A DNA stretch of 64,000 nucleotides, from the NCBI GenBank assembly GCA_036172245.1, contig JAYWIR010000012.1:2232001-2296000 (forward strand), given 5' to 3'. Shown here piece after piece: positions 11,836 through 60,254 of the stretch. Each line of letters starts with the position of its first letter. Position 1 is the first letter of the stretch. The notes beneath the pieces were generated by a model that ran no database searches, was not told the DNA's origin, and saw only the letters and a list, made by a program, of their open reading frames with translations. The translations under genes were made by a program, and so were the position numbers. This DNA is from Raillietiella orientalis. Lineage: Eukaryota.

Positions 11836-12188
11836 CTGGGGAGAGAGAAACCCTGTCCTAGAGAAGAAACTGCAGAGGAAGGGACCCGAGCGCGGGAGGG
11901 GGCAAGGAGAAGGCCCCGCGGGTCGGTCTCGAAGCACCCATCTCCCCAGGCATCTCCACCACCTGCCCTTCCACAGAGCCATTTTCCCAGGGGAGGACTC
12001 TCCCGCACCGCGCTCCCGAGCCGAAGAAGCCGCGGGGAGGACGGGGGGGGGAACGGCAGCCGCGCTTTCTTTCCCGGGTCCGGAGGGGTGCTGGCGGAGC
12101 GCACGGGGGGCTCGCGGGACTGAGGGAATGCCGTCAAGGTCACCGCCCACTCCCGGGGTCTAGGAGACAGGGGTCCCCCCCTCCTCAC

Positions 12189-12299
12189 CTCCTTTGCAGT
12201 GGCAGGTCAGGGAAACGTTGTCTCCTTCCCGGAAGGGACGGGTCACATTCCCGACGGCTTCTCCGACAGAGTCCAAAATGACTGGCCGGTGCGGCAGCA
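12189..12299 (-). CDS. Ig gene exon: start of Ig domain 2
   Basis: Acceptor ctctgttccAG, donor G|GTGAGG. Encodes (V)LPHRPVILDSVGEAVGNVTRPFREGDNVSLTCHCKG(G). 111 nt, phase 1 to 1. Confidence 0.92.
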
Positions 12300-12691
12300 C
12301 TGGAACAGAGGTGGCCATCAGCTCCGCGATGAGAGCAACCGGACCGAACCGCTGAGGTCGCTTACGTCGACGGACGACCGCGGACGCGCGAAGCCGCGCG
12401 GCGCACCTTTTCGACGGGTTCCGCAGAACGCGCGCGAGCCCGCCTTCTGCTCCCAACGAGGTGCGTCCAGCCATGGGAAAGCGTATGCTCCCCTCCCCCC
12501 TTCCCTGCCTTACCAGCCTCCGTCCCGGAAAATGGGGATTCCAGACGAGTCTTTCCACGTCCCACCGTCCTCATCTGCGGATCACAAGGTGGGAGGACTC
12601 GTCTGGGATGCTTCCTCTCACACGCAAGGGAAGGGGCTCAGGCAGATGGAGCTTCCCTCTGGAGACGCGAAGGGGGAGGGAGGAAACTCAC

Positions 12692-12897
12692 CGATCACGT
12701 GGGCGTGGATGGTAACGATCTTCGTGGGGACGCTCCTGGTGTCCACCCTGCAACGATAGGTCCCCGAGTCCACGAGCTGCGCGCGGGAGATCTCCAAGCG
12801 CGGGACGGGACTGAACCTGAAGGCGCACCTTCCGTGCAGACCTCCGCTGCCATCCGGGAGGCCTCTTCTGTCAACTTCTGGGACCCTGAGGTCCAGC
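12692..12897 (-). CDS. Ig gene exon: C-terminal half of V-set Ig domain 1
   Basis: Acceptor ttttcttttccAG, donor G|GTGAGT. Encodes LDLRVPEVDRRGLPDGSGGLHGRCAFRFSPVPRLEISRAQLVDSGTYRCRVDTRSVPTKIVTIHAHVI, containing the D-x-G-x-Y-x-C (YRCRVD) motif. 206 nt, phase 2 to 1. This frame is missing from the ORF track. Confidence 0.93.
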
Positions 12898-14078
12898 CTG
12901 GAAAAGAAAAGAGGCGGAGGTCAGCTTTGCCGGCGTCCGGGGGGGGGGGAGAGAATCCGGGCCAATTTGCGCGCGGGATCTCTGAGGGGCTAAGCACGAT
13001 CTTCCCAGGAGCCCGAATACTGCAGGAGGAGTTGGTCGGGAGCGAGTAGAGTCGAGGGTCAGGAGAGCGGACTGGGAGGGGGGAAGAGGGAAAGACAGGA
13101 AAAGAAGGGACCGCTTCGATGGGATGGGAATGCCTCCCGATGGATGGGGCGTCCGCAGAAAGAGATCGAGGACCTTGCCTTCTTGCTCTCCTGATCCCGC
13201 GAGGGATCGGGAACGTCCGGCGGAGCTCTCAGAAAGCATTTCGCGACATGAGGGAACGCCTCGTGAGATCCACGAGATCGATCACAGGACTTCCCACGCG
13301 CGCGTCCCCGAGAGGCGGGAAAGACTCGAGAGATTTTTTTTTTTTAAGATACAGGAAGCAGACCAGAGAAGGAACCCTTCGAAAGAGGAAATGAGGGTAG
13401 AAGGGATCGAGGAGCAGATGGTTGAGAAAACGGAACTTTGAAACCTCGGATGGCGGACACGCGAGAGTCCCTGCTTTTCGGGAAGGTCGCTCGGGACCCC
13501 GTCCTGTAAGGAGGAGGAAAAGCGGGGGCAGTTGACAGCACGACTCTCCTTGATTCCCCCTCCTCTGAGCCTTCGAAGCTGCGAGTGCTCCCCGGAAATC
13601 TTCCTGCGCCTTCCAAAGATCACCAAGGCACTTTTAGGAGGCTCACGTGCGCCCATTGCCGCCTCCCCTTCCCACGGTTCCCCGTGATGGAGTGGGCGCC
13701 TTGCTGCTCTCATTCGAGCAAGGAAGCGCCATCATCCCGGTCCTTGCAAAAGGGAGAAGGGAAAGCCCCAGCAGACCCTCTTTCCTCCTATTCGGAGCAG
13801 GCAGGGCTGATGGTCCAAGTTTGAATCTTTATCTGAGCTCCCTTGCAAACGCCCCTAAATCTGGGAAGGATGGGGGCAGAGTTCAAAGGGGTTGTGGGGT
13901 TGATCAGGAGACTTGGGAAAACCGAACTGCACTGCGGAAGTCCTCCCGGACATGTCCTTTCGTATTTCCCCCGCACCCAGATCGGGACCACTACCTACGG
14001 GAGCGGCCGACCTGCCAAAGAACAAAACGGCAAGTGGGGAAGCACTAGAGAATGGAAGATGCTTTGCTTGTGCAGCAC

Positions 14079-26360: not shown

Positions 26361-27000
26361 GGGGGGGAGGAGGAAAGAAAGAAGAGGAAGGAAGGAAGAG
26401 AGGAGGAGGAAGGGAGGAGGAAAAGGGAAGGAGGAGGAAGGGAGGAGGAAAAGGGAAGGAGGAGGAAGGGAGGAGGAAAAATGGAGGAGGAATGGATTTC
26501 CTCTTTCTTCGCCTTTTCTCTTTCTCTTTTGTTCTTTCTCCCTTGAACTTTCTCTCGTCCCTCTTCCTTTCCTCGTTTCTTCTCCTTCTCTTGCTCTTCC
26601 TCTTTCTTTTCACCAGCAGCAGCAACGTCAGCGCCATCATCACCACCGCTTCACTTTATCATCCCATTCCTCCTCCCTTTCCTCCTGATCGTCATGATTA
26701 TCACCTGTACTGTCTCATCCACTACGATCATCCTCGCCACCACCATTAACGACGTTTTGCTGCTCCTCCACCTCATTATCGTCATCTTTATGGTCTTTCT
26801 CTTACCACCGCTGCAGTCTATACTATGGCGTCTCATCCTCACCACTAGCATCACTGTCATCAACAACACTAGCAACAATCTACTCTTTTACTTCACCATC
26901 GCTCAATTCCTCCTGCTCCTCATCACCGTCATCATCATCGCCATCATCCCCGACCACCGCTGCACCGCATCCCCCACTGCCGCCAACATCTTCCTCCCTC
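26361..27000. repeat. Compound low-complexity tract: (GGA/GAA)n, then (TC/TCC)n, then degenerate (CAT/CAC)n
   Basis: Purine tract at 26361-26492, pyrimidine tract at ~26497-26610, then trinucleotide-periodic CAT/CAC/CCT sequence. Confidence 0.9.
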
Positions 27001-30000
27001 TCCCCCTCCGAAGACCCCTCTCACCCGCTGCGAATCATACCGGACACGGATCGAACGATCCACGCTGCCTCGCCCCTTCCCCCCCTTCTTCGCCCAGCCG
27101 CAGCTCTCCCCCTCCTTCCCTACCGCCCCTTCGGGCTGCCTTCCCAAGCGTGCCCGACTGGACCGCTCTCTCCGCCGTAATGAAATCAGGAACTTCATCC
27201 GGATGCTCTTCGCCTCGTGGCCGCCCCGGGGAAGACCGAGTGGCCTACCGGGAAGAGGAGTGCAACCGCAGGCTCAGCAGAGGGAGTAAAGGAAGAGGAG
27301 GAGCAGGAAAGGGAGAAGAACGCCGGGGATAGCGGCGCTCTCGGGGACACGCCTCCAGGAGACGCCCGACACCCATCGCCAGCGAAGGGACATTGGCTGC
27401 TTGAGGCTCTGGGTCGCGGCCGAGGGGTGGCGAGGGACCTTTGATCCAGGAACGAACCCCGCAGGAGGGCGCGCGACAGAAGGCGCGCGGAGCGCCTCCC
27501 GGAGGCGGCAACGAGGAACCGCTTGAGCCGGCACCCGTAGGAGCGATCGATTTCCCAGGCGGGGAAGGGGTAGAGAGCCCCATGCCGCAGTCCAGCGAAT
27601 CCCGGGAGGACGGCGGGCACCCCGGTGGTTTCACCTGGGAGAGGGAGGAAGAGGGGCTCGTCCTCCGGGTGGGAGCCTCCCGAAGGACCCCGCTAATGGC
27701 GAGAACCTCCGGAAGAAGGGAGGAGGAGGAAAGGAGGAAGAGGAAGAAGGAAAGAGAGGAGGAGGAAGAACTCCGAGGAGCTAATGGCGAGGTACGTCCA
27801 TGGAGCGGCCGCCGGCCGACTCACTGTCCAAGGATGACCTGGACGCAGCCTCCTGGAAGGCGCAGGGATTGTCCGCACCGGGGACGTCCTCGGCGGGGCA
27901 GTCAGGCCTGCGGCTAACGGTCGAGGCAGGAGAGCCACAGTTTCGGGGTCGGCCCGCGAGGGGGTCGCACCTGTCCCTCTTCCCAGAAGCAGAAGAGGGA
28001 GGAAGGCCGCTGTCCTCCCCTCCATGGAGGCAGTCCCGGAAGGTCTGCGCTCCCGTCCTTTGATCCCAAAGCAACCCATTGGGATCGAAGGGCTGGTCCC
28101 TTACTCCCCGTTTCCCCCGTGTGGGACTCCAAAGTGCGCGCGACCCGACAAGGAGGCGCAGAGGGCGAAGTGCCATGGTAACGTAAAGAGGGAGGGGGAA
28201 GTGGTCCTCCAGCCGGAGTGCGGCCACCGTCCATCCGTCCACCCCGGCGGGAGCACAAGAGGGATCTTTGCGCCCAGGAAATTAAGAGATCTCTAGGGGT
28301 CGCTCGCCGGAAGGGAAGGAGCGCGCTCGCACAGGGACCGACTCTCTGCGCCTACGAAGCACAGGGAAAACGCGGCGAGCCGGATGAGGCACTCGCTGGC
28401 TCGCGGCCGCCTCCACTCGGAACCTCTCGTGGGCAGCGGCGCCACCGGAAGTCGCGTTCCTCCCTTCGATCCTTTCGGTGCCAGATCTGAGCTGCTGCCG
28501 CCCGAGCCATCATTGGATAAGGGCAGGAAGGGACTCTGCTTGGCGGCCGACCGGCGCCGCGATCAACGGCCGTCGACTTTGCCTTCCGACAATCAGCCCG
28601 CGCAGATTCCCGTGGGCCACCTGATCACCTGGAAGTTCCCCACCCATTCGCTTGGTTCTTCTTCATTTCGTGCTCCCCCTTCTCCTGCCTCCTCTATGTC
28701 CCCTTCGTAGCACCGCTGGGTCCCTTCCTGGAGGAAGTACTCTTGCGGGAAACAACAGGGGACGTGGTGCCGTGTCCTAGGCAACGTGCTGTGCAGGGTC
28801 TTCCGATCTCCAGGGTGATGTAATGGTAGAGTAGAGACGCGCGTGGCTCAACAGTTTGTCCGCAGTGGCCAAAGTCCTCCGTGCCATCGGAAGACTCAGG
28901 GGACCAGAGGGAACCAGTGAGGAGGTAGCCTTCTCGCGGGGTCTCGTCGGTGCTTAGCGCCGAGTCCAAACTTCCTGGTGCTGCAGCCGACGAAGCTGAC
29001 CAGGCCGACAACGTGCCCGCCTCTTTTCGGCTGCAGGGGGAGCGCTCAAAGGAGGAGACCCCACCTTTTCTACGAGCCGACCTGGTTCAGGTCGCAGCGC
29101 CGCTCCGCGCTCGACGGCGCCAGCGAGGCTCGGGCGGTGACAGGAAGAGCAGGGACTTCCGAGGGCCTGGCAAAGAGTTTATGGCTGCGCCAACCAGCTC
29201 CCGGCCCTTCGTGGCTTCCCAGCCACCCCGCTGGCCTGCCTGCGCGCCGTGCGGCAGTATTCAGTCGCCAGCATCTGCCTCGGCGGCCACCGAGTGTACG
29301 GAGAACCTGCCCAGAGGGGTAGTCGTACCAACAGAGCAGTCATATTGGATCCGCTCGGGCACACAATTGGGCAGCGCTTTGCAATCCCATGGTTCCCTCT
29401 ACGGGCTGTAGATGCGTGGCAGGACCCCCCAAAGAGCGGCAAACAGGTCGAGCCCGTCCATGGGCCGCAACTGTCTTTTGCCGCAACGAGGTGACCACGA
29501 AGAGCGCCTTCTCTGCCCCTCCGACTCCCGCATTTCGTTGGCGCCCCTTCCCTTCCCCCTTCTTTTCATCTTTCCTACGAGGCGAAAAGAGGAACAGGCG
29601 AACTCCTCCGGAAAAGCTCTGTGGAGCATGACAGGGTCCCAGGTGGGTCGCTAGGACTTCTTTGACCCGCGATGCCGAACTCGGCTCCAGAAAGACTGCA
29701 AGTGTGGATCCACTGCTGGAGGCCGTCGTTGATGTCCGTCGGTGGAAGAACCACTGTTTCTACTTCCTCCGGATCTGTGCCGAGAATGCAGGCGTCGCTG
29801 AAACCGCAACAAACAGCGGACTGCCTCAAGGATTCTTCGTTCCGCTTCCCCTCCGCAGAAGCATCGGATATCCGGTAGGCAGGTTCATGACAGTCCACAG
29901 AAGGCGGCCGAAACCGCAAATCCCGCCAGTGCGATCAAGTGCCAGGAATGCGTCCCGGAAGAACCGTGGAGGAGACTGTGGGCACGTCGGCCTGTCCGTC

Positions 30001-36600: not shown

Positions 36601-37989
36601 GGGATGTGGCAAGTCACCAGCAGCAAGGAATCCCCACGGGGCTGCTAAAGGATGTCGAAAAATGGACCGCCGAAAAAGACCTCGGCGGGTTGGCACATCG
36701 AGGAAACACTCCCCGGATAACTCTCATCCCTTCCCCTGTACTGCTCCAGGGAGAATACAAGACCCAAGGTTTCCAGGGGAAAGAAGACAAAAAAAAAACA
36801 ATGAGCAGCTGAAGGGACAAGGAGGAGAATTTCTGCAACGGGAACTCATCCGAAAGGAACCCGAGATAGGAGAGGCCTCTCTTTCCCCTGGCAACCTGCC
36901 CTTCTATCCTTTCTTTTTTTCTTTGCTCCATAAGACTCTGGAATGGCGCTTCGCTGCAGCCTTCTCCTTTGAGAACCATTCCTCCCTCTCCTCTCTCCCC
37001 CTTGCCTCGCGTCTCCATCCAGCCAGTTTCTGGTTCGCTACCGTTTCTGGTACGAATGGAGAAAATACCTCCTGTGTTACCTCCACTTGATCCCCACGGC
37101 AACTGGGAACTCATCGTGGAAGCTTCCGGACCATAAGGCTGGTCTTCTCAAGCGGCCACCAGCAGGAACGAGCCGCGCAAAACCAAGGCGGGAGGAACCG
37201 CGGAGACGTCTTGACGGAAGCGCCTATCGATAGCTCATTGGTTCGCTTTTCTCCCGAAATTCAGGCGCTGTGGAATTGCTTTCCTTCTATCCTTATCCGA
37301 CTAATAGGATCTTCCTACCTCATCGTCCTGGACAGCCATTAGTGGTGCAGTCGGCGAGCTCCGGCTTAGCGCCAGCGCGGACCCACATTCCAGAATGGTT
37401 GCGCGTTTCAAAGTCTCCCCAGTATGCATGCTGAATCCGCACTCTTTCAGCGTATCCGCATTGTTGCGTCGGGACTGCATTGTTTTGGAACGTCTTCATT
37501 GTTGCTGCGCGCCTGCATTGTTGCTATTGCACGATTCTGTTGATTCCACTTCCTGGTAGTTCCCATTCGAGCACTCCTTCCTGAGTGTTCGTTCGCACCT
37601 GGCATTGCCGGGACATTTATTTAAAAGAAACGAACTGAAGTTCATTGGGAACGGAGTTCCTGCAAAGCGTACCAGCCAAACCCATGACAAAGGAAGTTCA
37701 GGAGGAATGACCACCAGCTTGCAGGTCGGTCCCTAAGGGAGTCAGTAGGAGGAGGGTGGGGAACAATCAGTAAGGTGAAAAAAGACGAGAGGCTAGGGGC
37801 AGGGGTCTCTGGTATCAAACACCCCTTACTTCCTAGAGATGGCGCTGAATGCTGGCGATTCCCCTGCCGACTTCTTGAAGATGAGGCCACCTTGTAGCTG
37901 GCCTCAGGGAGGCGGCTGCCCTGCTGGACGGCCTCCCTTCGCAGCGAACGAGACCCCATCACGGAGCGGGTTGCAACGATGGCGCGGAT

Positions 37990-38925
37990 GCAGCATCTCG
38001 TTGCGGCCACGGAGAATTCCATCGACAGCATCGACCACGTCTTCCTCGACGAGCACCTGCGCGCGCGGACGGGTCGCCGCCACAGGAGGCGGTCGAAGCT
38101 GTCGGATCACCACCGAATCGACTTGTAAATGTTGCCCCGCCAGAAAAACTCCCCGTTCTCCGCGTGGCGTATAACGGGGGACTGGATGCGTCTCCCCGAG
38201 GCCGTGGAGCAACTCCGTGGCTTCTTGCGAGGAGCAGCAGTGCAAAGATTCGAGGACTCCGACGCTCTGAAGAGCTCGAGATTCTGCGAAAGATTCCCGG
38301 TAGACCGCCTCCCGACGCTTTCGGCCAGGGCATGCGGAAAGAGCGGGCGTTCTTGCAGGCGCGGCTATGGCAAAGACGGCCAGATGTACGTCGACTGGCG
38401 GAATTTCGAGCAGGGATCGAGCCCCAGGCCTGGCAGTCTAACTCGGCCACTTTGCTGGACGTAAACGGCCAGGAATGCTCGGCCCCACAGCAGGTAAAGC
38501 GCATCTTGCGCAATAACTACTCCTATCTTTACGCAAAGGCACCACTGGAGCACGACTTCTCGCAGCGCCTACTGACAGAAAACGTCCCAGCGTTAGGGGA
38601 GGAGTGGCAACGGCTCGCGGAACCTTCCTCGATTGGCGAAATCTCCAGCGCCATCGGAAAGCTCCAGAAGAGAAAAGCGCCAAGAAAAGACGGTCTGCCC
38701 CCAGAATTTTACCAGAGCTTTGCGGTAGAGCTCGCGTCCCTGGTGCAGAAGATGGAACTGATGACTCGGGAAACGGGAGAGGTTCCTGCCTCGTTCCGGT
38801 CAGCTAAAGTAAGGTTCCTCCCGAAGGGAGGAGACCTAAGCAACATCGGCAACTGAGGCCAATTACTGTTGTAAATACAGATTCCAAGTTGCTAACGAAG
38901 TTGCTCTCTCGCTTGGAATTGGGCG
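37990..38925 (+). mobile_element. Decayed L1/Tx1-like non-LTR retrotransposon ORF2 (end of APE endonuclease, linker, start of RT)
   Basis: IDHVF (38030) and SDH (38102) APE motifs. Then KAPRKDGLPPEFYQSF and FLPKGGDLSNIGN-(W)RPITVVNTDSKLLTKLL RT N-terminal motifs. Interrupted by a stop near 38126, a frameshift near 38270 and a 1-nt deletion near 38855. Confidence 0.88.
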
Positions 38926-41762
38926 GCTCCGAGTTCGCGACCTCGCTGCTCTTCCGGAGACCCGGACCTGGTGGTCGTCTAGAGGCTCTTCAGCCGACAC
39001 TGCCTAGCAGACAATTCCCGGCCGTGACGGGTGGAGGGGCGACGCCGCCGCCTCCGTCCTGGGGTGGTCCTGGAGGATCAATGCACCAACGGGCACAACC
39101 TGCCCCTCAGATTCCTCCCGGAAGGGCTCAGATCCCTACGGTTCGCCTCTTTCCGCGCGCATTCGCTCCTTGCGGGATGCGGCTTCCGCGCTTTCGAAAT
39201 GGAGGCGCGCGTCCGGCCCGGAGGGGACCCCCTCCTTCGAGAAGGGCCCGGATCATGTCCCCGCATCAGGCGTCCCTCAGCTGCTGGCCTCCTTCTTCCT
39301 TCCCCCTTCCATCACCTCGCCCTCATCGACGACCTCGGAGGACCTCGGAGGTGGAGCGGAGGTTCTTCGTTGGTCGCGAGAACGGGCTGGTCATCGTCCC
39401 CGTCAGGGAGGAGGAGACGAGGTGGCCTCCTGAGTACGCTGGTCGACTGAGAACCCATCGCGGAAGCTGGAGGAGTCCTTGCCATTAAACTGGCGTCCCC
39501 CGAGGGATTGTTCGGCACGAAGGGACTCGCTGCGCTACACGATGGCGTGGAGGCGACTCCCCAGCAGGCAGATTCGGCTCAGGGCCTCGAGATTTCCAGC
39601 TCTCCTTGCGAATCGATCTCTCGGGTCATCGCTTCCCAGGATCCCAGCGGATCGACGGCGATCACGCCAACCGGTGCTCCGTTCCTCCCGGGAACGGGGG
39701 GAAGAGAGGGAGGGCCTCGATTCCAGCGCAGCGCAGTTCCGTCGGGGAAGCGGAGGGTGCAGGGAGGTGAGGCCGATCCCACTTTGCCCACTCCGTGGGA
39801 TGCCGGCACCCGTCAGAGGGAGCGTCTCGCAGCATCTTCGTGACCGTGGGGAGAAGAAGAGCACCAAGAAGAACCGGAAGTCAGCCAGAGGCACGCACGC
39901 AGGAGAGACGACGCCCTCCGCTCTGGAGTAGTCTGGGCAATGGCCTCGCTGATGCGAGGAGCCTCTCGATACCACAGCCGGGAGCAGGGGATGAAACGGG
40001 AAGGGAGGGAAGTAGTTCGGAGAGTCCCTTTTCTTGCGCCCCCCCTCTCTCTCTTTCTCTCTTGACCCGGCATCCCGTCCATGAAACGCCAGTAACAAGG
40101 AAATCTTCCGGGATCGGCTGCGCGTGTCTGGCTCGAAGGCTGGGCTCAGTCCTGGAGACCCGCGCAGGGGAAGGGGGGAGAAGGAACAATTTCTGGTTCC
40201 CTGAGGAAGGAGGAGCTTCCAAGGCGCCCGCAGGGCTCAGAAAGTCCTCCTTTCCTTCACGAAGAAAAATTCCTCCGCATCTTCAGCCAGCATCCGGCCG
40301 CCCTGGACTGCGAAACCGCGCGGCGGCTTCGTGTTCACCACCGACCACGAGGTCTCTCGGAGAGCTATAGCCCTGCTACCCACACCTCCTCAGGCGGCAG
40401 CAGGAGGTGGTGCCCCCCCCCTCGCATGGGTGCAGGCGAGGCAGTAGCCCTTCCCCATGACTTCTAGCGGTGGTGCCTCGACCCCACTCCAAAGGACCAG
40501 TCCAGGCGGCCATCTGCGAGGGGGAAGAGAGGAAGGAAGAAGGTCGCCGTACTCTCCTTCCTCCCGGAAAGAATTCTCGGGCAGGCGAATGCGCTCCGCA
40601 GGAGGAAGATCCGGAAGCTCCTCCCTCAGGAGCTCTGCCTCCGGGAAAGTAGAGTCTCTTTCGGGAGCGGACGTAGCGCAGCGCCGCCGCTTCTTGAGAG
40701 CACGCCGGAGCGCGCGGCTGCCGCTTCTGAGACGCCCGGCGAGTGCGTCGCTCGGTCCAGCGCGTCCCTTCCCCTCCTCCTCCTTCTCGACTGCGCCGTA
40801 ATCTCCTGACTCTATAGCCGCCGGGATCGCTCCCTGTCTTCCGCCTCCCTCGAATTTTCTCCTGGATCAGGTGATGCTGCGATCGCTGAGATGAAGAATC
40901 TCCAGCATTTGGGGGAGGAGGGTCTTAAGCGGTTCCTCAGCAGAATTTTCCACCTGATCTGCCTCGGGAGACGGCAAGCCGAAAACTCGAGACGAGGGAG
41001 GGGAGAGAGGGGGAATCGATGCCGCGGTGGAGCCTCCGCGCATGGATGCGCAGGCGAGCGATGGCCTGGTGCCCCTTTCCCCTCTCCTTCCCCCACACAC
41101 ATACACAACCTGACCGGCGGGCCCACCTGGAGGCGTCCCTGGCAAGCGCGCTTTTTACCAAGGACGCCTCCAGGTGGGCGTCCTTGCCCCGCCTTCCCAG
41201 TTGGACCCTGCTCCTGAGGGTCGCCTGGACGTCATCAGAGGACCGACTGAGAGGTGGTGCTATCCGCCGCGACGTCGCCACTACCATCTTGGAAACCGAA
41301 CCTCATGACCGGGGCGATGGGTGGAAAAGCTGAGGGCGACGCGAGAGTCTCTGGCCTTCCCTCGGGTTCAGGAAGAGAGCGTCTCGGTGCACAACCCGGG
41401 GCAGCCTTGGTCTGTCCGCGGAAATGACTTCTCTCGGCGCGGCTCCCGAAGCCAGTCTCCACAAAAACTGGAGCCGGCGAGGGCCCTTCTGCAGTCCAGA
41501 GAGCAGCAGGGAGCGCTCCGCGACCCGCAGTGGCAGGACGCTTTCCCCCCGGCTGCATCCGGCAGCTGAGGGACCCGGTTCCCAAGGAAACGGCTCCGTC
41601 GGCAAGCGAGGGCCGGGAGACCAGCACGGGTACAGCGCGCTCGGGACGGTGGCTCCGCATGGAGCTCATGTCGCCGGCAGTTCGGGATCCCTCCGGCCTC
41701 TCGGCGCGGGAGGAATCCGCAGAGATGCGCCATCCCGTCGCAGGAGCAGACCAAGCGCGACC

Positions 41763-47000: not shown

Positions 47001-48348
47001 AGCAAAAGGAGAGTCCCTCTGAAGCCAGAATCCGTGACCAGAGACAAGCTGCAAAGATGCCTGACAGCGCAAGTGGAAGTCAGGCGATCGAAACCCAAGC
47101 GGAAGCGAGGGGAGTAGGGGAAGAGCTCGGATGAGCTGGCCGCATTGCTATCTATTGATGACTTGAAGTACTGTTTCTGTTCGAGTGCAGTTTTTTAATA
47201 AGGCACGAGATGGCACGTGCCTACTGCATTCTCGAAGTCCTCCCTGAATATCGATTTTCAAGACTTTTGGCCTGCTGGAAAGCCACGGGAACCCCGCGGG
47301 TTCCTTTGGCTCTGGAATCCCATAGCGCAATCTGTACTCATCCTCAGGGTACCATTTTATTGCTCTCAACCCTCAGGCTACTCGGGAGAGCGTGGTTCGT
47401 AGCCGCTGAGAGGCGGACGCGTCTTCCAGAGTGGTCCTGCAGCTCCCGCAAAAGAACAGAGGGCGTGCAACCTCCGAGAGTTGGCGAGGGAACGCCCAAG
47501 GGGGAACGACGTTTCTCTCCCACTGCCATGTGGTTGGGTGTCTCGCGGGGAACCCTCCGGAAGGTCACCGCGCGGACGATTTCGCCTCCACCGAGCTCTC
47601 GAAGAGATTCCTTGCAGAGCGTGGGAGGGGCCAAAGAGGATGCGGTGGACGCGAGCCGACTGGAGTCTGCGTCCCACGCGGAGGGGGCGTTTGTCGCCAC
47701 TCCCCTTCCCCGCGCAAGGCGGCGAAGAAGTGCCGGTGACAGCTGGCTGATGGAAGAGCAGGACGGAAAGCGCCCGCGAGCGCTATTCGGGGGGGACGAG
47801 CCGCCGGGAGTCTGTCCGTGGAGCCGACAAGTCGCCCTTTCTACCAGAGGAATCTTCCGCTCTCCGGGGACTCGCGGGAAGGAAGGCACGCGCGGTTGCC
47901 GCAGCCCGAGGCTCCGGGCGTCAGTTGCCCATCCCCAGCAGAGGAAGAGGAGGAGGGCTGCCTTCCAGCGCGCGAGAGACTCGCGGAAAGACCGCGAGAG
48001 GGCAGCAGAGGGCAGACGCTCAGCTGCTGCCGTGGCTCTTCGCTGCGGAGACGCCTGGGGAGGAGGGGGGAGGAAATCGATTTCGACACCACAGGGAAAG
48101 GAGGGCCCGTGGGCAAAGGAGGGTCCCGCTGGCGAGGAAAGTGACCCCCTCCCCCTCCCGCGCGCGGAAGCCGTGGCTCGCCTTGGACGCGACCGAAAGC
48201 TGACCACCGGATTCGAAAGGGCGATCCGGGCGGCCTCTCCCCTCGGCAGAATCTTCTGGAAACGGGTCTTTCCGGTCATTGCAGAAGGGGGAGGGGAGTG
48301 GGAGGCGAGGAGAGGAGGGAAAAGAAGGGGGGGCAGCGCGCGTGGATG

Positions 48349-48528
48349 GAGTTCTCTGTTGTTTCATTAGAATGTGCTACAGATTTTGTTACTACCGCGC
48401 CGGCGCCATCACCAGAGTACACAAGTTGACCTATCTTGCCAATCAACAATCCTAGACATTATTTCAGTACCTATAACCAGTGCATATTTAGTTCTGTTGT
48501 TAGATTTTATAAAAGAATCAGCAATATT
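48349..48528 (-). pseudogene. fabH: Bacterial 3-oxoacyl-ACP synthase III (FabH) gene fragment, frameshifted; putative endosymbiont-derived insertion
   Basis: Translates NIADSFIKSNNRTKYALVIGTEIMSRIVDWQDRSTCVL, then a single T at 48414 where a Phe codon is expected, then GDGAGAVVTKS. This is the FabH signature DW-x-DRSTCVLFGDGAGAVV. The segment is clearly AT-rich with abrupt edges against GC-rich flanks. Confidence 0.9.
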
Positions 48529-51500
48529 TTCGCCTTCTTCCTCCTCCTCTCCCCTCCCTGCCGCGGCCTCCGCCGCGAAGGCAGGGGAGGAAGGAGATGG
48601 CGAAAAAGAGTGGAGGAAAACGCGACCTCGGAGAGCGCCTTGGCGGAGCGGGACACGCGGAGCCAGCGTCGAGGGGAAATCGTTCCTGGGGAGGAAAACG
48701 CGTCCATTCCGGAGCAGCGCCGCCATGGAGACCCCTCCGGCAACTCTGCTCCCGAAGGATGCGTTCCAGGGTCTCGAGATGGGAGGCACTGCTCCCGGTT
48801 TTACGTGGTACCGGCGGCATAAACGCAACCTCGTGAGGACACTTCTACCCCATGTACCTGTCCGCAGACCGAGGACAGGCCCACAGGCCATTCCGCGGCG
48901 CCGAGAGCAGCTCGTCCCCCACGCAGAGAGGGAGGAGGTGGACCAGAGTGTGCTGCGGCCACCATATTTCCCTCTGGGAAATACTGCGTCACGTCCTCTC
49001 CTTCCGGTCGCATCTGTGGCCGGCTCATGTCGCGGGAACCCTGCTGACCCTTAATGATGTCCTCTGACCTCCTCTCGGGCCTCTTCGGATGAGGCCGCAA
49101 GTAGGGTGAGAAAGGGCGACTTGTCTTCCCAGGTCCTCAGAATCATCCATCCCTCCGAGCGGACGATCGCCAGGAGGGACGTTGCTCGCCCTGAGGCTGC
49201 AGGAAATTTCCTCGAGGGCCCAGGAGCTGTTCCGGGAAGGGGCTTCGTCTCGCGGGCTCACTCGCCCTCGTAGTGGAAGGAGGCTGCTGGACCACCAGTC
49301 CTAGACCAGGGCACGGACCGACGACCGGAAGGGGAGGCTCCACGGTAGGGCGGAAACGGTTTCCCGGGGTCACCTAGAGGATTCAGCGTGCTGGGGAGCA
49401 GAGCGCGGGCTTAGCCGGCAGCAATCCCCCATCTTCTCCGTCCCCTCCTCCGGAGATGCCCTGAGGACTGCGACGGAACTCACTGCTGCAAGGCGGGCGA
49501 GGTGGTGGCCAGGGGTCTTCCCTATGGCCGGCATCGGAAGGGTGCCGCGTGATAAACTGTGCTTGATAAACTGACTGTCAGCTCGAGCTAGTGCAGGTCC
49601 ACTGATCTCTAAATTATTAGATCCCTTTTTAGATCTAATAAGTATTTCTATTTCTGTGTTGCAAAGAGTTTCATGGAGTGATCCCAACACGCATTCAAGA
49701 TAAACTTGTGGGATTCCGGTCTTCAAGTCTGTGACCAAGGCGACGTGCTCAAGTCGCTTCTGGTACATATTTTGCTTCATAGTTTCATTTGCAGAAATCT
49801 AATCTCATTTGAATCCGCCCGCTCAGTCTGCTCCGGACACAGCATCTTGTGCGTCTGGTCCCGATGTTAAAGGACAGTTTATGGCTGCATTTCATACAGT
49901 TTGAATCACCCAGGGATACCAAAGATCGTTCACCTTTTTCCGATGTGGAGACACCAACTCCTTCCAATCCATCACGGAGGAAAAACTGGCAACCGGAGAC
50001 TCTCAAGCGAAGTTGCATCTGTCGGGTTGCGCTTCTTGCAGGCATCCCCCCCCTTCGCTCTTTCCCTACCTTCCTTCCATTCTTTTTTCAGGTCTTTTAC
50101 ATTTTATTCAGGTACTCTAAAAATCACATCCTGACCTGCAGAAATATGGCCACCGCTGTAACTCTCCTTTAATTTTTTTTCCAGAGTGCTGAGCTCACAG
50201 ATGTTCCCAGTTTTTAATTAGAAAAACAACTACAAAAAATGGCCGCGTTCTTCCTGCCTGCGTACACATCCGTCTAACAAAATGACCTGTCTTGATAAAT
50301 CGTTACCTTGTACCAATACGTGCCAGACGATAAGAAGCCATGCGGAAGGGGAAATCCCACGTGGATAAACGCGAAGACGTAACAGGACTGAGACCAAACC
50401 CTAGCAACTGAGGAGAAGCCCCGAGTGGAAACGGACAGGAACCGGGAAAGGTGCACAACGTGTTCCAACGTGGTGCTGCTACCTTCCCGGTGCCATTCAC
50501 CGTGCGCACGAAACACCGCGCTTTGTGGTGGTGTTGCCTCGCTGAGTGTACGTGCACGAGGCGGCCTTTCCTCCCTTGCCAAATCCCGCCAGTCTACACG
50601 ACGCTCTCGCTGTATGAAGGCATCTGCCCAGCAGATGCTCGCCAGCCGCCCCGCGGATCCGGTGAATCAGGGTGGTTCGGGGTGGTCTCGGACACGAACC
50701 AGAGTGCAGAAAGAAAAGAACGGGAGCCCCCCGGACATGTCGAGGCAGAAGGCCCCGCCGCTGATGAGACTTCCCCACGTCGCTCGCAGATCGTCCAGGT
50801 TGGATCACTCGCGGCCAGTGGACGTCCGGGTGCACGCCCGAGGAGCACGTGACCAGGAGCGCAGGAATGAAGGGAACAAGGCACCACCGCTGTTGATGGG
50901 ACGTGGGCCCACCCGCCCTCGAAGCCCTGATTCGTCGAGACCCATGAATGCTGAGGGATTTACGCCTGTGGACCTCAGACAGGGCCTATCCTCGCCCCTT
51001 TTCCCTCAAAGTGGGGGTCTACAAGCGTGCCGGGGGAGGTGGAAGCCTCACGGCTTGTGCAGGGACAGCGCTGAACTGCAGGAGGCTGCCTGAGGAGCCG
51101 TTTTGGCACCCGACGGCGCCACGGCTTCCCCGGCGTAGTCCTGATCTGCCTCTGCGAGACGAACGATGCTTCCCGCGTGGGTCCTGGAAATGGGCGGTCG
51201 ATGGTAAAGAGGGGGATGCTCTGCCCCCGGCAGAGAGGTACGGGTGGCGCCGTTTTGCCAGGTGAGAGAGGCGAAGTGCCCTTTCTGTGGTGCTGCAGAA
51301 GAAGCTGCTGGGTAGGCGGGGCGAGAGACCCCCCGCGAAGAAGGACTGCGCTCGTACGAGAGAGACCGCAGCCGTCCGTTCCATTCCGTTCTCTCGCGTG
51401 TGGGTCCCGCTTCGCACGTGCGCATCGCCCAAGAACGTGCTTAAGGAGAACGCAGCGACATCACGTACAGTAACGTAGCGTACGACATAATGTACAGTAA

Positions 51501-54500
51501 TTTAGTGTACGCAAGTTTTTCAATCGAGAGCGTGCTGTGGGTACGCTCATCGACCGAGGAGAGCGCCGACGAAGGAGCGCGCGCCCGAAGGACGCCTCTC
51601 CTCTTACCGCCATCCGGAAAGGCGAGCGTCCGAGTCTTCCTTCCCAAAAATCCGGAGGAACGCACCCTCAACCCTCCTTTCGTCTCGCCTTCTGAACGAG
51701 GCGTCCGTGCCCCGCAGCCGGGCGACCCTTTCCTCCGCCCGCCCTCTCGGCTGGCCTTGCGGTCGGCGAGCTTGGGGAAGTAGTTCCGCCGCCGCCCGCC
51801 CCAGCGGCAGCGCCACCCGCTGCGCGGCGGCCGAACCGGTTCGCCCCTCGAATCCTCTCCCGGCAATCCTCGGACGCAGCTCCTCGTAGTGAGCTGGCTC
51901 TGCGGCGGCGGCGAAGCCGCCAGGGGAACACCACGCTGGGGGGTGGGGCGGTGTGCTACCAGAAACTTCCGAGAGCTAACAAGGCAGGTTCGAAGGGAGG
52001 GGGAGAAGGGAACTCGTCGAGCGGACTTGGGGCGCTGCAACAGGAGCAGTGGGTGGAGCAGGGCGCGCCACGGAGGGTGCAGGCAAAGGACGTTGGGGCT
52101 ACCCCTTTCCAAGAAAGCCCGCAAGAGAATGGGATCCGATGAGATCCGATGACGTCACGGGAGCGTCCCCGGTGACGCAATGGCGGCGGCGGCGGCGGCC
52201 CGCTTCCGCCCCTCAGCGAAGAGCGAGTGCTAGGAAAGGTCTGAGGGCAGGAGTCCTCTGGTCTGCAGCTGCGCTGCCGCATTCTTCCCATCTTCGCTCC
52301 CGGCTCCGCCCAGAGAGTCTTCTCCAGCGGGAAGGAGGAGACGGGCACGCGGTTCGTAACTGATCCAGCACGGGCGCGGGGAAGGGCGCCACACAAAGCC
52401 GTGAAGGTCAAGAGGGAGGGTCTGCCATGCGATTCCCCAGGAGCCGTTTCGGAGAGGTTCCAGCGGGTCGGGCGAACCCATGGCAACGGCTTGACGAAAC
52501 CCAGGACCAGGCTGACGCGCGGACCGGGTTTCCGGGAACCACGCCGCCGCTATTCACCGAGGGGGCGCCCGCCCGCCCACCGGCCAGGGGGCAGAGGGCA
52601 GCCCGTCTTCTTCCTGCGACGGCACCGCCTCTGGTCGGAGTGCAAACCTGACTCGCGAGAGAGCACTGTTGGCACGAGGCGACCTGGAACCGCTGCACAG
52701 GACGATATTGTGGAGGGCAGCGGCCGCCTGGAGTGCCCCCGGAAAGCTCCGCTGCCCGGGTGAGAGGGAGAAAAAGGGGATGCGGTGGAATCTACCTCAT
52801 TCTTTCCAGCTGCCTCGCCCGATGCCTCTTCCCACTCCCACTCTCCTGTCGCAGGAGGCACCAATCGGCCGTCCCGGGTCGACGGATCCGAGCGTTGCCC
52901 AGGCGATGGCGGCGGGGTGTAGCCTCGGCGAGGACTCCCTCCGGAGAGCACCTCTTCTTGCACCGGAGGCTGCACCCGCGTCCTTCCAATCACGTTCCAG
53001 TCCCAGCAGCGCCATCGGCATCCGTGCCGCAGGGACTGGGACGTGATTTTCATATACTATTTTGAGGGGTGGCGAGGAGGTAAGAGGTCACATGTTTTTT
53101 CCTCTGCCCCGACGAGAGAGCCGGACGAAGGAAGCGCGGCGTTCCCGAAGGACGGTTCGGAAGGAGGACTCCTGCGCGTGCAAGAGTCACCCTCCCCACG
53201 AATCCGCGGGGGAGCGCCCTCCGTAGTTCCGCCGCCGTCCGCCACGACGGCAGCTCCACTCGCTGCGCGGCGTCGGTCCGCTCGCCTCACCGTCGTCGCC
53301 GTGGTGCGAGAGCAAGGCCACCCGAAGGGTCCCCTCTCCGGGCGAGAGCCCTGTTCTCTCAGAGGCAGGATGACCACTCTCTCCGGGAATAGGGGCCTCC
53401 TGAGTGCCTTCCGGGCGAGTGCCCACGGCGGCTCGTCAGCCCCGCTCTGACCAACCAGCATCCCGCCGCGTTTCCCGGCTCCTCTCAACTGCCCTACCGC
53501 TTCGGGAAGTCTCTGGATGTTGACACTCTGGGAGCTTCCGGACCGCTGTCCCTTCCTCCCCGTCCCCCCAGGGATCTGCAGCGGCAACCGGAGGTCCTGG
53601 GGGGTGCGTCGGCTGCTTGCTGGTCGTCTTGATCCCGCGCATCTCTCGCGCTCTCCATTCCCGATCTTTGATCTTCCATCCTCCGCAGCGCTGGGATTCC
53701 TCCCTCTCACTCCCGACTCTCACTCCCTTGCCGGGCCTCCCTGGGCTCCCCCAGTGGCTCCCCAGTCCTCGGATTCTAAGAACAAGTCGTGGAGGAACGA
53801 TAAAAGCGATTCTTCCTATCGATGTATGGATCCAGAAAATTCGAATAGGTTTCCTAATGAACCTCAAGAAAATATCAATATCGAAATTGTGATGAGGGAA
53901 CGGGAAACCCGATACGAAAATCCTCCTGCAATCATCATGAGTGGGCCTTGTCTTTTTGCGAGATAACCGGCAGAAGAGACGGAAAGTGATGATCACACTA
54001 CCCAACGTGGATACGGAGTTGGGCCGCCAAGAAACAAAAACAGTCCCTTCGAGTAGGCCACGAGCAAGTTGCAGTGAACGTGGAGGTTGACTTCCTTATG
54101 ATGACCACGTACGGTTGGCTCGAAAGCTTCCGTCCGAAGACGATGATGGGAAGGATACACAAAAGTCGGTCGAAAACGACACGCAAATGGTCCGAACGCA
54201 GCATTTGCAATTTTTCTATTCGTTGAAATTGAATTCAGACTCTTGGAGTGTACTTAGAAAGTGCAAGTGCGTAGATTGGTCTTAAAATTAGCCTCCTCCT
54301 AAAATTAGCTCCATTAAGATTAGTGTCTCCCGGGTGTACTTAGTTTTGCATTCGATGTACGGAGTTCGGTACCAATAACTGCCGTCTTGGGAAGGATCCC
54401 TTCATTATTCGTACTTAGATTTTCATTTGGTGTTTTGTAAAACGACCGGCACTCGTCGCTGCGGTTTTCACAAAGATAGCATTTGCAGATTCCATAAAAA

Positions 54501-56110
54501 AAAAAAATATCCGTGGTACACCTCGCAGAGCATCACTGTAGTAAAACTTGTGTTGTGCGTTTCCTGTGAAAACTTTACTGCATTGAACCCAACTAATTGC
54601 ATTAAGTAGCAGAAACACCAGTCAGTGGCATTATTGGTTTCAATCACAACCTGCAGCTACATAGGGATTTCATTGTATGTGTGGATATATTATGATTAAG
54701 AACCTTTATTTTATTTCATTTTTTTTTTCTAAAGAAACTAAATTGCTTTAATGTATGTCCAAAGAACAAGCGACCAAAGAAATCACCAAATGAACAGCCA
54801 CCCTCCAGTTTGTGTCACTGCTTCAACAGCCTCCTGAAAATGTCCTCCTCCTTTCAAAAGCCTTAACATTGCCAACATGATTTGGTTTGGTTGAGATCTC
54901 TGCAGGAAGGAAAGATTCCCTTTGTGTCCTTTTGCAAACAAAAATTGAGCTTCTCATTTGCAGGGAAGATAAAGTACTTGTGGATAAGAATTATTCATAT
55001 CACTTTCCTGTACTCTTAGTACAGGAGAATAAGTTAGTGGTGATTCATGGTTTGTTGTTATAACAACAGAGTGCCAAAGTAGAGAAACAGTGGCAATTCA
55101 GAAAAAATTCTATTATACTGAATTTAAACTGCTTTCTTTTGTTTTGAAATCTAATATATGCCTTAGAGCATCTGGGCTGTTTCATGAGTGTATGAAACAC
55201 TTAGGGTAGTCATGGATTTGGACCACTCAAGCAGTCTTTTTATCAGGCTTGTGCACAATGGAGTACATCTTCAGTCATCTGTAGCATGCCATAATTTTAT
55301 TTCAAATACAAATTGTATTTAACATGAAACTTAATCCCAAGTCAGGAGTAGCCAAGCCAAATGCAAAGATCTGCCGTGAAAACTTTTACAACTTGCTTTT
55401 GTTTTAAACAGTTACTTAAATCAGTTAATAAATGATTTCATTTTCCACACTGATGACACTGTAAACCAATGATTTATATAAACGAAAGATAATAAAGTAA
55501 AGTTAAAATGTAAAGCACGAATGAAATAAGTTGGAATTTATGTACTTGGGGAGGTAATGTTTATGGATGTGGCAAATAAAAAGCAAACACCTTAACTGGC
55601 TATAAAGAATCTCCCATCGTTGTCATCGTCCGGCAGCAGGGAATATCTCCGGAGGATGCGGCGGCTATTGTCATCAGAACAAAAATGTGTTAAGGTCAAA
55701 GAAAAAACACTGAACCTCGTTTTCTTAGAAGTGTCCTGCCTTGCTCGGAGTGCTTTGGTGGTGCTCCTTCCGCACCAGCGGCAACGAAGTGTTGCCATGC
55801 CGAAACAACTGTTGAGCGTTGAAGAAATCTGTTGCTGCATGCTGCAAAAGAAAAAAAAATCGCTGGTTTCGGGAGATTAATTAAATCTCTTGTGTAGCGA
55901 GTGAAATCTGATTTTGATTAATGCGTTTTATTCCTCTTCCCCTTCGATATACGCCTGCGATTCGTTAACAAAATAAACAGGCTGTGCATAGGCGACTTTC
56001 AAAATCCGGGATGTTACGCGAATGTAATCCAAACCTCTAGCGGTTAATCAAAATCAAAGGCACAGCTGAAAACCATTAGTGTGTTGTAGCCAAGTGGTAT
56101 CTACACTCGC

Positions 56111-56196
56111 AGCCAAATAGTACATGTATTTATAGCCAAATAGTACACGTATTTATAGCCAAGCAGGGTTTGTATTTATAGTCAAACAGCATGTGT
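56111..56196. repeat. 23-bp degenerate minisatellite, about 3.7 copies
   Basis: Unit AGCCAAATAGTACAYGTATTTAT at 56111 and 56134, with degenerate copies at 56157 and 56180. Confidence 0.9.
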
Positions 56197-57620
56197 GCAT
56201 TTAATTGAAAGTGTCAAGGAAAAGCACAAGAACACGGATATCCCGAAGTGTAGTGTATCTGCATTTTTTTTTTATTTTTTCAAGGAGAGGTTGTGGCAAG
56301 GTCCCCATGAAAGAATCCCCATTCGAGTAAGCCAAAGGGCACAACATGAAACATCAACCAGAATTCTGCAAATGTGTAAAAGTTTGACAGGACTGTGTCA
56401 CTTAACAGAGCTCAAAATCCTTTTCGAAAGGAGGATCATGTGATTCATCACGTCACGCTTATTTATAACCTTTTCCGCAAAAACGTTCCTGCTTCCTAGT
56501 GCATACCGTGCATAGAGAGATGCTGGCGTGGGGACGTTGGGGGAACAGCCCCAACAGTTTAAGAATAGTATTCCGAGCAAGAAAGTGTTCGACGAGGAAA
56601 CGCACGTCCGAAAGACGAGATGACAGCGGGGCAGGCTTCCCTGCTTACGGGTGGCGGTGAATCCCGAGTCCCACACACACGCGTGGTGGTAACGATTTCC
56701 GGGTGCTCCGAAGGGTTAAGCAGCATTTCGCGGCTTCGGATCGGGTTCCCGAGGCCTGTTCCGAAATGAGGGAGGGAGGATTCAAACAACCAATAGCGCA
56801 TAGTGGATTGGTTTACTTGAGGGTGTCCGAAGGAAAGGCAAGTTACCGGGGAAAAAAAAAAAAAAGGAAAAACACGCATGAAGCAACTGGATGTAGAAGC
56901 GAATGGTTTAAGCGGAGAAGCAGAACGGGTTTGATTCCATTTGTCCACACGTCGAAGTACGAACTCGCCTTTCGTTCACCTACCAGCATGACCGTCCCGT
57001 AGTCATGCCGCCGCTAAGAATTTTGTTTGATCCGTCCAGATAATTGCTCTGGGATTCCAGCAACCTGGACTCCACGCGGTGCCTTTCGAAGCCTTTGCAT
57101 GGCCGTGTTCTCAGGCGTTGCCAACCGTCCCATTACCTCGGAGATCAGGAACTGCCTCTCGGAATGCCCGCTTTTTTTATTCCGAGGTCAGCAGCAGGAA
57201 TTGTGACATGTCTCGATTCTGCCATGAAACAGTGTATGGAGCGTTCGTAGGGCAGTGTGCGCGCGCGCGCTTACCTGGTTTCTTCTTTTTCGGGGGGACG
57301 ATCTGCCACTCGTTTTTCTCACATTCATCCCGCGTCGATGAGGTAAAAACAATTCGTGTTGCGAACGTCTTGTAAGGTTTACGATGAGCTCTTGCTTAGC
57401 GTACGAACGTAAGTTGTGAACACAGTTGCTGATAAGCACTGCGCTCTTGTCAAGCTGCGCACGAAATACCTCACGAAAGGATATGAACTGTTAAATCATA
57501 CAGAAGAAGAAGGGGAAAAAAAAAATCAGTTAGATAAAGGGATACGCGGACATTAAGAATTAATGGAGGTAGCACGTTCAAATTTACTAATTACTGTATC
57601 ACTAAAGGAATAAAGTCATT

Positions 57621-57670
57621 TCTCTCTCTCTCTCTCTCTCTGTTTATGTTTATATATATATATATATATA
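57621..57670. repeat. (TC)10 and (TA)10 microsatellites
   Basis: Read directly at 57621-57640 and 57651-57670. Confidence 0.97.
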
Positions 57671-58580
57671 AAGAGCGATAATGGCAACAATGAAACACTT
57701 GAAACACGAAAGATTCTCTTTTTCAGGAATGACCAAGTAACATTTCAAATCGACTTCAAGGGAAGGCGGGAAAAAAAATGATGAGCTGAGGTACCATGGA
57801 CAGCAAAGAGTTTTTGGTTAAGGAGACAAAGGAGAATGGCAACCCGGCTAGCTCACGAATAGGAGGAGCCCCGTTATTTGTTTATATGATCTTTCCACAA
57901 GATTTGATCAAAATTTAATGCAACCGTAGCCTTTCGTTCGGGCAAGATGATGCTTTCATGATGCAAATCCGCGTCGCATTTGCCAGTGGCGGTCGCTGAA
58001 GATTCGATGGCACGCGGGTGCTGCGCGCCTCTTTTCCCTCGCACGTAGGAATTTTCAGGGAAACAATTCTTCGCTAATCTTTTCCATCAAATTCTAATTT
58101 GGTTTTCTATTACGTTCTGGTTTCACTGCATGCATGCAGATCCTTCTTTGAGCCTTTGTTCTGCTCAGAATTATGAACGGAATTCCGCATAACCTTTGGA
58201 GGAGCCTGGTGCGCATTTCAGGGGAAGCTCCCCTCATCAAATTCTTGCCCATGTCACACTCTTTTTGAGTAAAGTGTGTTTCATAAAGTGAATTTTCATT
58301 TCTTTTTTCCCACGTGCAGCCATTTCCTTACTTTCTGCTCTCTCCTTATTTCCAACCAGTTGCCTTGGAGTTATTCACTCGCTTGAAACCGGTGATCATC
58401 TGCTTACATCACTGAAATTTATTCCCATCTTCATCAGAGGCGTCCGTTTAATGGGTTGCTACTTTCGTGGAGATTCCATGTAACTCGGAAAGTGGTGGCA
58501 ACTAGGATTTTTTTTTTTTTCTTCCCTTCTTTTCCTTTCCTTTTTCCTTCTAATCTCCCTGGCCTTTTCACACTGTCGCA

Positions 58581-58789
58581 TCTATTTATAGCTTTCCATA
58601 TTGTTGCGTCTATTTATAGCTTTCCACATTGTTGCGTCTATTTATAGCTTTCCACATTGTTGCGTCTATTTATAGCTTTCCACATTGTTGCGTCTATTTA
58701 TAGCTTTCCACATTGTTGCGTCTATTTATAGCTTTCCACATTGTTGCGTCTATTTATAGCTTTCCACATTGTTGCGTCTATTTATAGCT
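58581..58789. repeat. 28-bp minisatellite, about 7.5 near-perfect copies
   Basis: Unit TATTTATAGCTTTCCACATTGTTGCGTC starts at 58583, 58611 ... 58779, head-to-tail with no spacers. Confidence 0.98.
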
Positions 58790-60254
58790 GGTCCGCACAC
58801 AACGTTGCTCGGCTTGGAAAGCGCGGAAGCAATCATGGAAGCATCCATGGAACCAAACAGCAAGGAACACATTTGTCCTCACTCGTGCGATTCTGCGGAT
58901 GTCTCGAAATGCTTTCATAGCATGCGTCTATGACAAATGAACGCTGATTATTCGGCTTTTAATCGATCAACCTGCAAAATATGTAAGGATGCACTTAATT
59001 CAAGAGGCTCCAGTCGTTAGCAAAGCGGAACGGTCAATGAATAAAATTTCCCTCAAGTTCCTTACGGCCGGGAATAATGGATGGCCATCCTGCTTGGATG
59101 AAACAATCCTGCATCGTCAGCGATCGATAGCACAACCAAGGAAAAGGAAACTACATCTCTACGGCATCCCATTCAAACGTTGGCTCGCCGAGAATCAAGG
59201 CTATTAGCCTCCTCCCTTGGCACCTTCGTACTTTGTTTCATTCCTGGTATATCTTTGAGCTTCCAGTCATCTGAAAATGCCTTTGAAAAATTGTGATAAA
59301 AGAGTTGTGTGTGTGTGTGTGTAATGGTCATGTTGTCAGCCCCTGAGCAGATGCCCCTTTTATTACGCAGTTTTGGTCTGCGCTCCTCAGAATGATGAGC
59401 CCAGGCGATGCTGTGACCATCCACGATGTTCCCGGTGCTCTGCGTGCAGCGAGCCAAACCCCCATGCTGCAGCAGCTCCCTCCCTTTCCTGGTACACTTT
59501 GCAGAAGAAGGGAAGCAGGATGAACCAAAAGGTCTTTCAAGGGAACACCAGGGTTGCCTGAGACAGGCCGCTTCTTGGATTGGCCCTTCGAGCGAAGATG
59601 CAGACCTCGGCTCGCCTCGGGGGGAAGCCAGAGACTCGGAAATTTCGGAGGAAACGCCTAAAACTGAGACCCCTTCCCCCTCCCTCTCTCGCCTCCTTCC
59701 TCGACCAGTTCCATCAGTCGATGGCACCGCAGCAAGTGGCACCCGACTGTGAATGCTCGTAGCTGCGCCGCTGATCCGTTGGACGCGAGGACTCCTGGAG
59801 CCAGAGATTCGGGCGCGTTGCGCAGGGCAAGTGAGCGCTGGCGGAGCCGTTCCTCCGCACCGGGCGAAAGCAGCGGCAGCGCACCCTGTGGGAGGCCCCT
59901 AAGCTGCTCTCGCGAACCCACGAGGGAGGGAAGCGCGCTCACCCTCGATCTCCCATCAGGGAAGCAGAGGAGAGGGGGAGATGAGTCCGCGGGCGAAGGC
60001 CGACGGCGGCGCGGTGCGCTCCGCCGAACGCTGCCTGGGGGTGGCAGCACGAGGAGGTCCGCCCTCTGCAAGAGGGGAAGGGAGGGCGCTCTTGTCCAAG
60101 GGTAGACAGAGAAAAGACCTGGGCTGGCACACGGACGCTGCTGCAAGATGGCCCGAGGATGATTATCACCCGGCTATGTCGGGGCATTTCTTACAAAAGG
60201 TGATGAAAATGCATCTGCGTAGTAGGACCCTTGGTTCTACACGTGCAAGAAACC

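Follow-up and report, generated by a model that had tools for sequence, protein, structure and literature searches.

The window, the whole 64-kb stretch of DNA that was analysed, contains an AT-rich island of 180 bp at 48346..48525 on the minus strand, and a Wolbachia origin of this island is strongly supported. The island is a fragment of fabH, which encodes beta-ketoacyl-ACP synthase III, as shown by blastn, tblastx, a match to Pfam ACP_syn_III and GC content. It corresponds to approximately residues 121-184 of a 326-aa Wolbachia protein. We consider it probable that the fragment is a genuine, small and non-functional nuclear Wolbachia transfer (nuwt). Real chromosomal integration, the mechanism of capture and its timing are what we infer from the assembled sequence. 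Nuwts are a well-known phenomenon, and only its GC-rich host and its unsampled donor lineage make this one unusual.

The island has sharp edges. Its GC content is 37.8%, versus 67.6% in the 500 bp on the left and 64.0% in the 500 bp on the right, and the outer bounds of similarity to Wolbachia are 48346/48347 and 48524/48525. The first-pass annotation had described a sharp-edged AT-rich insert of about 180 bp at 48349-48528, and the bounds determined here agree with it within 3 bases. Translation of the minus strand from 48531 to 48415 gives ENIADSFIKSNNRTKYALVIGTEIMSRIVDWQDRSTCVL. This first reading frame (48415..48531), seen in the translation and in alignments with FabH chains in PDB, consists of EN followed by IADSFIKSNNRTKYALVIGTEIMSRIVDWQDRSTCVL, and the opening two codons (EN) are located at or outside the junction. 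A lone T at 48414 follows, after which the minus strand 48413..48339 translates to GDGAGAVVTKSVAHSNETTENSIHA. The second reading frame (48339..48413, minus strand) consists of GDGAGAVVTKSVAHSNETTENSI followed by HA, and it includes the 8-codon insertion that is found in the 326-aa forms of Wolbachia FabH. The translation is identical to the FabH peptide that had been given at first pass. All 17 aligned Wolbachia fabH sequences have CTN TTT GGT at the point where the frame shifts, and the window has CTC T GGT. Therefore, the frameshift is a 2-nt deletion in a Phe codon, as had been claimed, and the T at 48414 is what remains of this codon. The codon belongs to the FGDGAGA motif, and the deletion removed two T from a run of three.

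The match to FabH is well beyond chance. Frame 1 alone matched Pfam ACP_syn_III (PF08545) with E 3.8e-11 and 43.2 bits (cutoff 24) at profile positions 15-51 of 80, so that the significant FabH match expected from the annotation was indeed obtained, and blastn gave E of about 1e-63 to Wolbachia genomes. In addition, frame 1 aligned with approximately residues 119-158 of FabH chains in PDB (best E 7.8e-9). What is kept is about 64 of 326 codons. We take the Cys-His-Asn catalytic triad to be carried by the motifs AACSGF, HQAN and NTSAAS. Alignment with a functional 326-aa Wolbachia FabH (P0002) placed the Cys of AACSGF 9 residues upstream of the first kept residue, and HQAN and NTSAAS downstream of the last one. 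Neither the triad nor the C-terminal domain (PF08541, ACP_syn_III_C), both of them parts of the functional full-length enzyme, was found in the fragment, and Pfam searches of ORFs and tblastx revealed no further FabH-like piece in the 64-kb window. Thus, the fragment resembles the functional protein in its identity (84% protein, 89% DNA), in the DRSTCVL(F)GDGAGA motif and in the lineage-specific insertion, but differs from it in being short, in its shifted frame and in the absence of the catalytic Cys, His and Asn and of the C-terminal domain. It is dead and non-functional, since it is truncated and frameshifted and retains none of the catalytic residues. We see no plausible function for it in the host.

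Database searches revealed where the fragment came from. For the protein search, we bridged the frameshift by reading CTCT as L, which gave the query P0001, and 520 proteins matched it at E<=0.001. The best 120 of these 520 were Wolbachia FabH, except for two entries labelled Rickettsiales or Rickettsia endosymbiont and some unnamed entries. Among the best 120 of 520, the top matches were 326-aa forms with 80-84% protein identity over 91-95% of the fragment, and their named sources are Wolbachia of lice, bedbug, sheep ked, Brugia and Mansonella. The stretch KSVAHCNETTEHS is missing from the forms of 318 aa, which belong to supergroups A and B; their alignments cover 97% of the fragment with 67-68% identity, or 75% of it with 86% identity. 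When the search was performed with a 213-aa ORF spanning the right junction, non-Wolbachia FabH showed only 52-64% identity. At the DNA level, blastn gave matches to the fragment in all of the 60 Wolbachia species genomes searched; the five closest showed 88-89% nucleotide identity across 178-181 nt (lowest E 1e-63). An intracellular alphaproteobacterium (Wolbachia/Rickettsiales) had been proposed as donor at first pass together with the expectation that blastn and blastx would place Rickettsiales fabH at the top, and the top matches were in fact Wolbachia fabH. Because the best DNA match is 88-89% and the 326-aa forms match best, the donor was a Wolbachia with the 326-aa form of FabH, which is known from sources named as bedbug, louse, filarial and pseudoscorpion Wolbachia, but none of the 60 species-level genomes searched lies close to this donor.

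The affinities of the fragment within Wolbachia are mixed. The half in frame 1 is nearest (87%) to a metagenome-assembled genome (MAG) and to a form from the pseudoscorpion Atemnus politus, which have SFIKSNN in common with it, and the second half resembles forms whose named sources are Wolbachia of louse, sheep ked and bedbug. The fragment has SFIKSNN, otherwise seen in one MAG and in the form associated with the pseudoscorpion, together with an insertion region like that of supergroup F. Its divergence from all 60 species-level Wolbachia genomes is 11%. In a tree built with the full-length fabH genes of 31 genomes, it joined deep among the lineages outside supergroups A and B with weak support (30-62), so that it was assigned to no supergroup, and its terminal branch was 0.107 versus a median of 0.026. 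Scans of metagenome contigs for exact patterns (the deletion site with 0-2 extra bases, and the SFIKSNN stretch) gave 0 matches. We also observed that a protein labelled as coming from the spider Nephila pilipes (P0124) is a 302-aa FabH of the Wolbachia type, which is due to either contamination or transfer.

Next to the question of origin is that of how long the fragment has resided in the host. Compared with 17 Wolbachia sequences, the window has 7 unique substitutions, a count from which one column was dropped as an artefact of gap placement. Five of the seven are nonsynonymous, and they are distributed 3:2:2 over the codon positions; the columns that vary among Wolbachia are distributed 24:16:43. 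When a wider set of proteins is considered, two Wolbachia forms also have one of the unique changes (Leu to Phe). The median dN/dS between the window and the 17 Wolbachia sequences was 0.37, a slight overcount since one nonsynonymous difference is the gap artefact, and that among 135 Wolbachia pairs was 0.19 (5-95% range 0.10-0.43). The raised value is thus near the upper end of the range between Wolbachia sequences, and it fits relaxed constraint but is not decisive. The GC content of the insert equals the mean of the 17 orthologous Wolbachia segments (38.0%, range 34.1-41.8%). Furthermore, 4 of the window-unique changes are GC-to-AT and 3 are AT-to-GC, and no drift was observed toward the 64-68% GC of the host. 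Since the base composition is Wolbachia-like and has not drifted, most of the 11% divergence probably arose in the unsampled donor lineage. For the same absence of drift toward the host, the insertion is probably comparatively young. Apart from the truncation, only the 2-nt deletion is a lesion that clearly sets the fragment apart from a living gene. The idea of the first-pass annotation that the fragment decayed after integration was therefore only partly sustained: the truncation, the deletion and the mildly raised dN/dS agree with it, but the Wolbachia-like GC content without host-ward drift does not, and the evidence for decay inside the host is thin.

Both flanks are non-Wolbachia DNA of the same kind (64-68% GC, CpG observed/expected of about 0.9) and are unique in the window. 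The window contains 0 N, and in this assembly host-like sequence lies on either side of the insert. An imperfect purine/pyrimidine inverted repeat is centred on the insert. Its purine-rich left arm (48304..48328) and pyrimidine-rich right arm (48533..48557), found by repeat search and folding, are 25 nt long and 80% complementary. When the flanks were joined in silico without the insert (60+60 nt), they formed a hairpin centred on the insertion point with -33.6 kcal/mol; 169 control sites with 60-nt flanks gave -19.9 +/- 4.7 kcal/mol, and 1.2% of them were as low. The signal was not significant with flanks of 40 nt or 80 nt, where 16% and 14% of controls, respectively, reached it. A more extended palindrome or a duplication of the flanks was also considered and rejected, as only short matches of <=38 nt were found. 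The hairpin is equally compatible with capture at a fragile site and with a region that is hard to sequence or assemble. We also compared the 213-aa ORF across the right junction with a collection of 5.8 billion proteins, in which none covered the host part; all 84 matches covered 17-29% of the ORF.

The window has 60-68% GC over most of its 64 kb, a CpG observed/expected ratio of about 0.9 and almost no recognisable coding sequence. Such a composition is unusual in animals, and arthropods do not typically have 60-68% GC. No match was obtained when the 64-kb window was scanned with Rfam and for tRNA genes. Among 147 ORFs of at least 151 aa there was no meaningful Pfam match besides FabH; one match to Octopine_DH (E 0.0087, below the cutoff) was discarded as chance level. 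Therefore, the window is not part of a bacterial genome and is gene-poor. A further 121 ORFs of 70-150 aa in regions of lower GC gave only sub-threshold, low-complexity Pfam matches. A scan for 3-base periodicity led us to immunoglobulin (Ig) exons and to the remnant of a retrotransposon. An Ig-domain half-exon is located at 11537-11857 on the minus strand (C2-set_2 23.6 bits vs a cutoff of 21; Ig_3 E 1.3e-6), and a weaker one at 12621-12920 on the same strand; both are assigned to an Ig-superfamily gene. The half-exon carries LWIHNLTRNHFGRPYACAAQNN, and an earlier part of the domain, EGDNVSLTC, apparently lies about 300 bp upstream, around 12170-12230. With the Ig exon as query, a word-based search of proteins gave no hit. 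At 37885-39488 on the plus strand we recognised by eye a degraded, stop-broken remnant of ORF2 of a non-LTR retrotransposon (LINE). It has the motifs DGLPPEFYQSF and RPITVVNTDSKLLTKLL, which precede the reverse transcriptase domain, and it gave no significant Pfam match. The Ig C2-set exons and the LINE remnant indicate a metazoan host, and animal host DNA is modestly supported. In the Atlas clusters nearest to the Ig exons and the LINE remnant, members are most commonly Arthropoda (score 0.95), which gives leads and not proof. An arthropod host is thus plausible; the arthropod context named at first pass draws on these distant features, and nothing arthropod is visible near the insert itself.

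Several other features of the window were noted. The strongest 3-base periodicity, at 26365-27050, comes from low-complexity repeats of the GGA/GAA and CTT/TCC types, and its strong part at 26651-27050 was attributed to such repeats and not to a recognisable gene, as the translations look like simple repeats. An AT-rich block of 5 kb (38-41% GC) at 54131-59080 has neither a Pfam match nor similarity to Wolbachia in blastn or tblastx. A tandem repeat at 58564-58789 consists of 8.1 copies of the 28-bp unit CTTTCCACATTGTTGCGTCTATTTATAG with 96% matches. As for other Wolbachia DNA in the 64 kb, blastn against the five closest genomes gave nothing else with E of 0.07 or below, and when the window was compared by tblastx with a complete Wolbachia genome of 1.25 Mb (G013), matches at E<=0.01 were confined to 48346-48525. 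A 25-nt match to three Wolbachia genomes at 49088-49112 (E 0.08-0.14) had no support from tblastx and was taken as chance.

Several explanations other than a small nuwt have to be weighed. FabH occurs in plastid-bearing eukaryotes and the upstream flank stays open in frame, so one might think of an exon of a native, organelle-targeted host FabH, or else of a transfer from a bacterium other than Wolbachia. We give this hardly any credence: the fragment is 89% identical to Wolbachia at the nucleotide level and contains the Wolbachia-specific 8-codon insertion, the next best non-Wolbachia proteins reach the 52-64% given above, the frame is shifted in a piece that is the only FabH-like one in the window, and a long upstream open frame is a usual by-product of DNA with 65% GC. 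A problem of the assembly or library deserves more attention, though we regard it as unlikely. It supposes that a Wolbachia read, or a piece of one, from a live symbiont was misbuilt into a GC-rich, hairpin-prone stretch, whether by gap filling, by polishing or because a molecule was chimeric or amplified, and that the 2-nt deletion is a sequencing error. The piece is about as long as one short read, its base composition is exactly that of Wolbachia with no host-ward drift, and the deletion falls in a T run, which is a context of sequencing and assembly errors too. The flanks are low-complexity purine/pyrimidine tracts that form the quasi-palindrome (-33.6 vs -19.9 +/- 4.7 kcal/mol in the 169 controls, with 60-nt flanks), and hairpin-prone low-complexity sequence is prone to drop-outs of coverage. 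Moreover, no protein in the collection independently covers the host side of the right junction. Nevertheless, this would need two wrong joins in the consensus, with host sequence on both sides, gap-free and with 0 N, and the AT-rich insert and GC-rich flanks share no words that could mislead an assembler. On reading, the junctions have no adaptor-like sequence, and the palindrome signal is lost with 40-nt or 80-nt flanks. The five nonsynonymous changes among seven and the raised dN/dS are also somewhat easier to reconcile with a dead copy than with a living gene.

The fragment might instead be what is left of a larger and old Wolbachia insert, or of a nuwt that was carried by a transposon or duplicated, and that later deletions trimmed. 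Large nuwts are described as fragmenting with time, as in the roughly 1 Mb of the lungworm (PMC4046930), and the long terminal branch (0.107 vs a median of 0.026) would suit such an age. We nonetheless find it quite improbable, as there is no other Wolbachia remnant in the 64 kb (tblastx at E<=0.01 with one complete genome; blastn with five genomes), no drift of base composition toward the host, and no repetition of the flanks in the window. A more specific scenario, which we put forward tentatively and regard as doubtful, is that the fragment is a fossil left by a Wolbachia lineage that is extinct or has not been sampled, and that it was captured in the middle of a hairpin-prone quasi-palindrome in an exceptionally GC-rich, CpG-undepleted arthropod genome. 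If this were true, the fragment would document an infection, since lost or replaced, of a host lineage in which Wolbachia is not known, and fragile inverted repeats would be implicated as places where symbiont DNA enters.

The reading that we prefer, a genuine small nuwt, may be explained as follows. Wolbachia in germline cells would release DNA, and end joining may then ligate it into a double-strand break, in the same way as with mitochondrial DNA inserts. A 180-bp piece from the middle of fabH would thereby have landed in non-coding, GC-rich DNA on a chromosome of an animal that is probably an arthropod. In the NUMT/NUPT type of capture, short organelle DNA is end-joined at chromosome breaks, with sharp edges and without target duplication. 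Capture by end joining is probable here too, and the case differs from NUMTs and NUPTs in that the donor is an intracellular bacterium and not an organelle.

Known nuwts provide further comparison. In Brugia malayi, a transfer of 227 Wolbachia genes and gene fragments is reported (PMC3849323), and nuwts in 22 filarial genomes are described as genomic fossils whose evolution is neutral and accompanied by small indels (PMC12693587). The fragment resembles these in being a piece of a Wolbachia gene with host-like flanks; according to those reports, filarial nuwts are mostly non-functional and mark present or past infection and the supergroup of the donor (PMC3849323, PMC12693587). Unlike them, it is a single 180-bp piece in 64 kb of an arthropod-like and unusually GC-rich host, and its junctions are those of the assembly. 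In the lungworm Dictyocaulus viviparus, nearly 1 Mb of Wolbachia-like fossil sequence is reported from the nuclear genome (PMC4046930). Degraded Wolbachia sequence is read as a history of infection there as it is here, but our fragment is one small piece with little sign of long residence. Drosophila ananassae shares with it the donor genus and the direction of transfer, whereas the inserts described in that fly are large, near-whole-genome and multi-copy (PMC4299567), versus 180 bp of one gene. Judged by titles and abstracts, a literature search revealed no paper on a nuwt of fabH, which says little because catalogues of nuwts are mostly in supplements.

These results have consequences for the assembly and for the host. 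Hosts with one nuwt often have many, and the assembly is thus flagged for a genome-wide screen for nuwts. If the fragment were an artefact, reads of a symbiont would have entered the assembly, and decontamination would be needed. The past infection proposed at first pass and a current one would both fit the fragment. Real junctions would mean that a Wolbachia with the 326-aa form of FabH is, or once was, present in the host lineage; this form lies outside supergroups A and B, which are dominant in insects. The fragment would then be a heritable marker with which the infection may be dated and typed, as described for filarial worms (PMC12693587).
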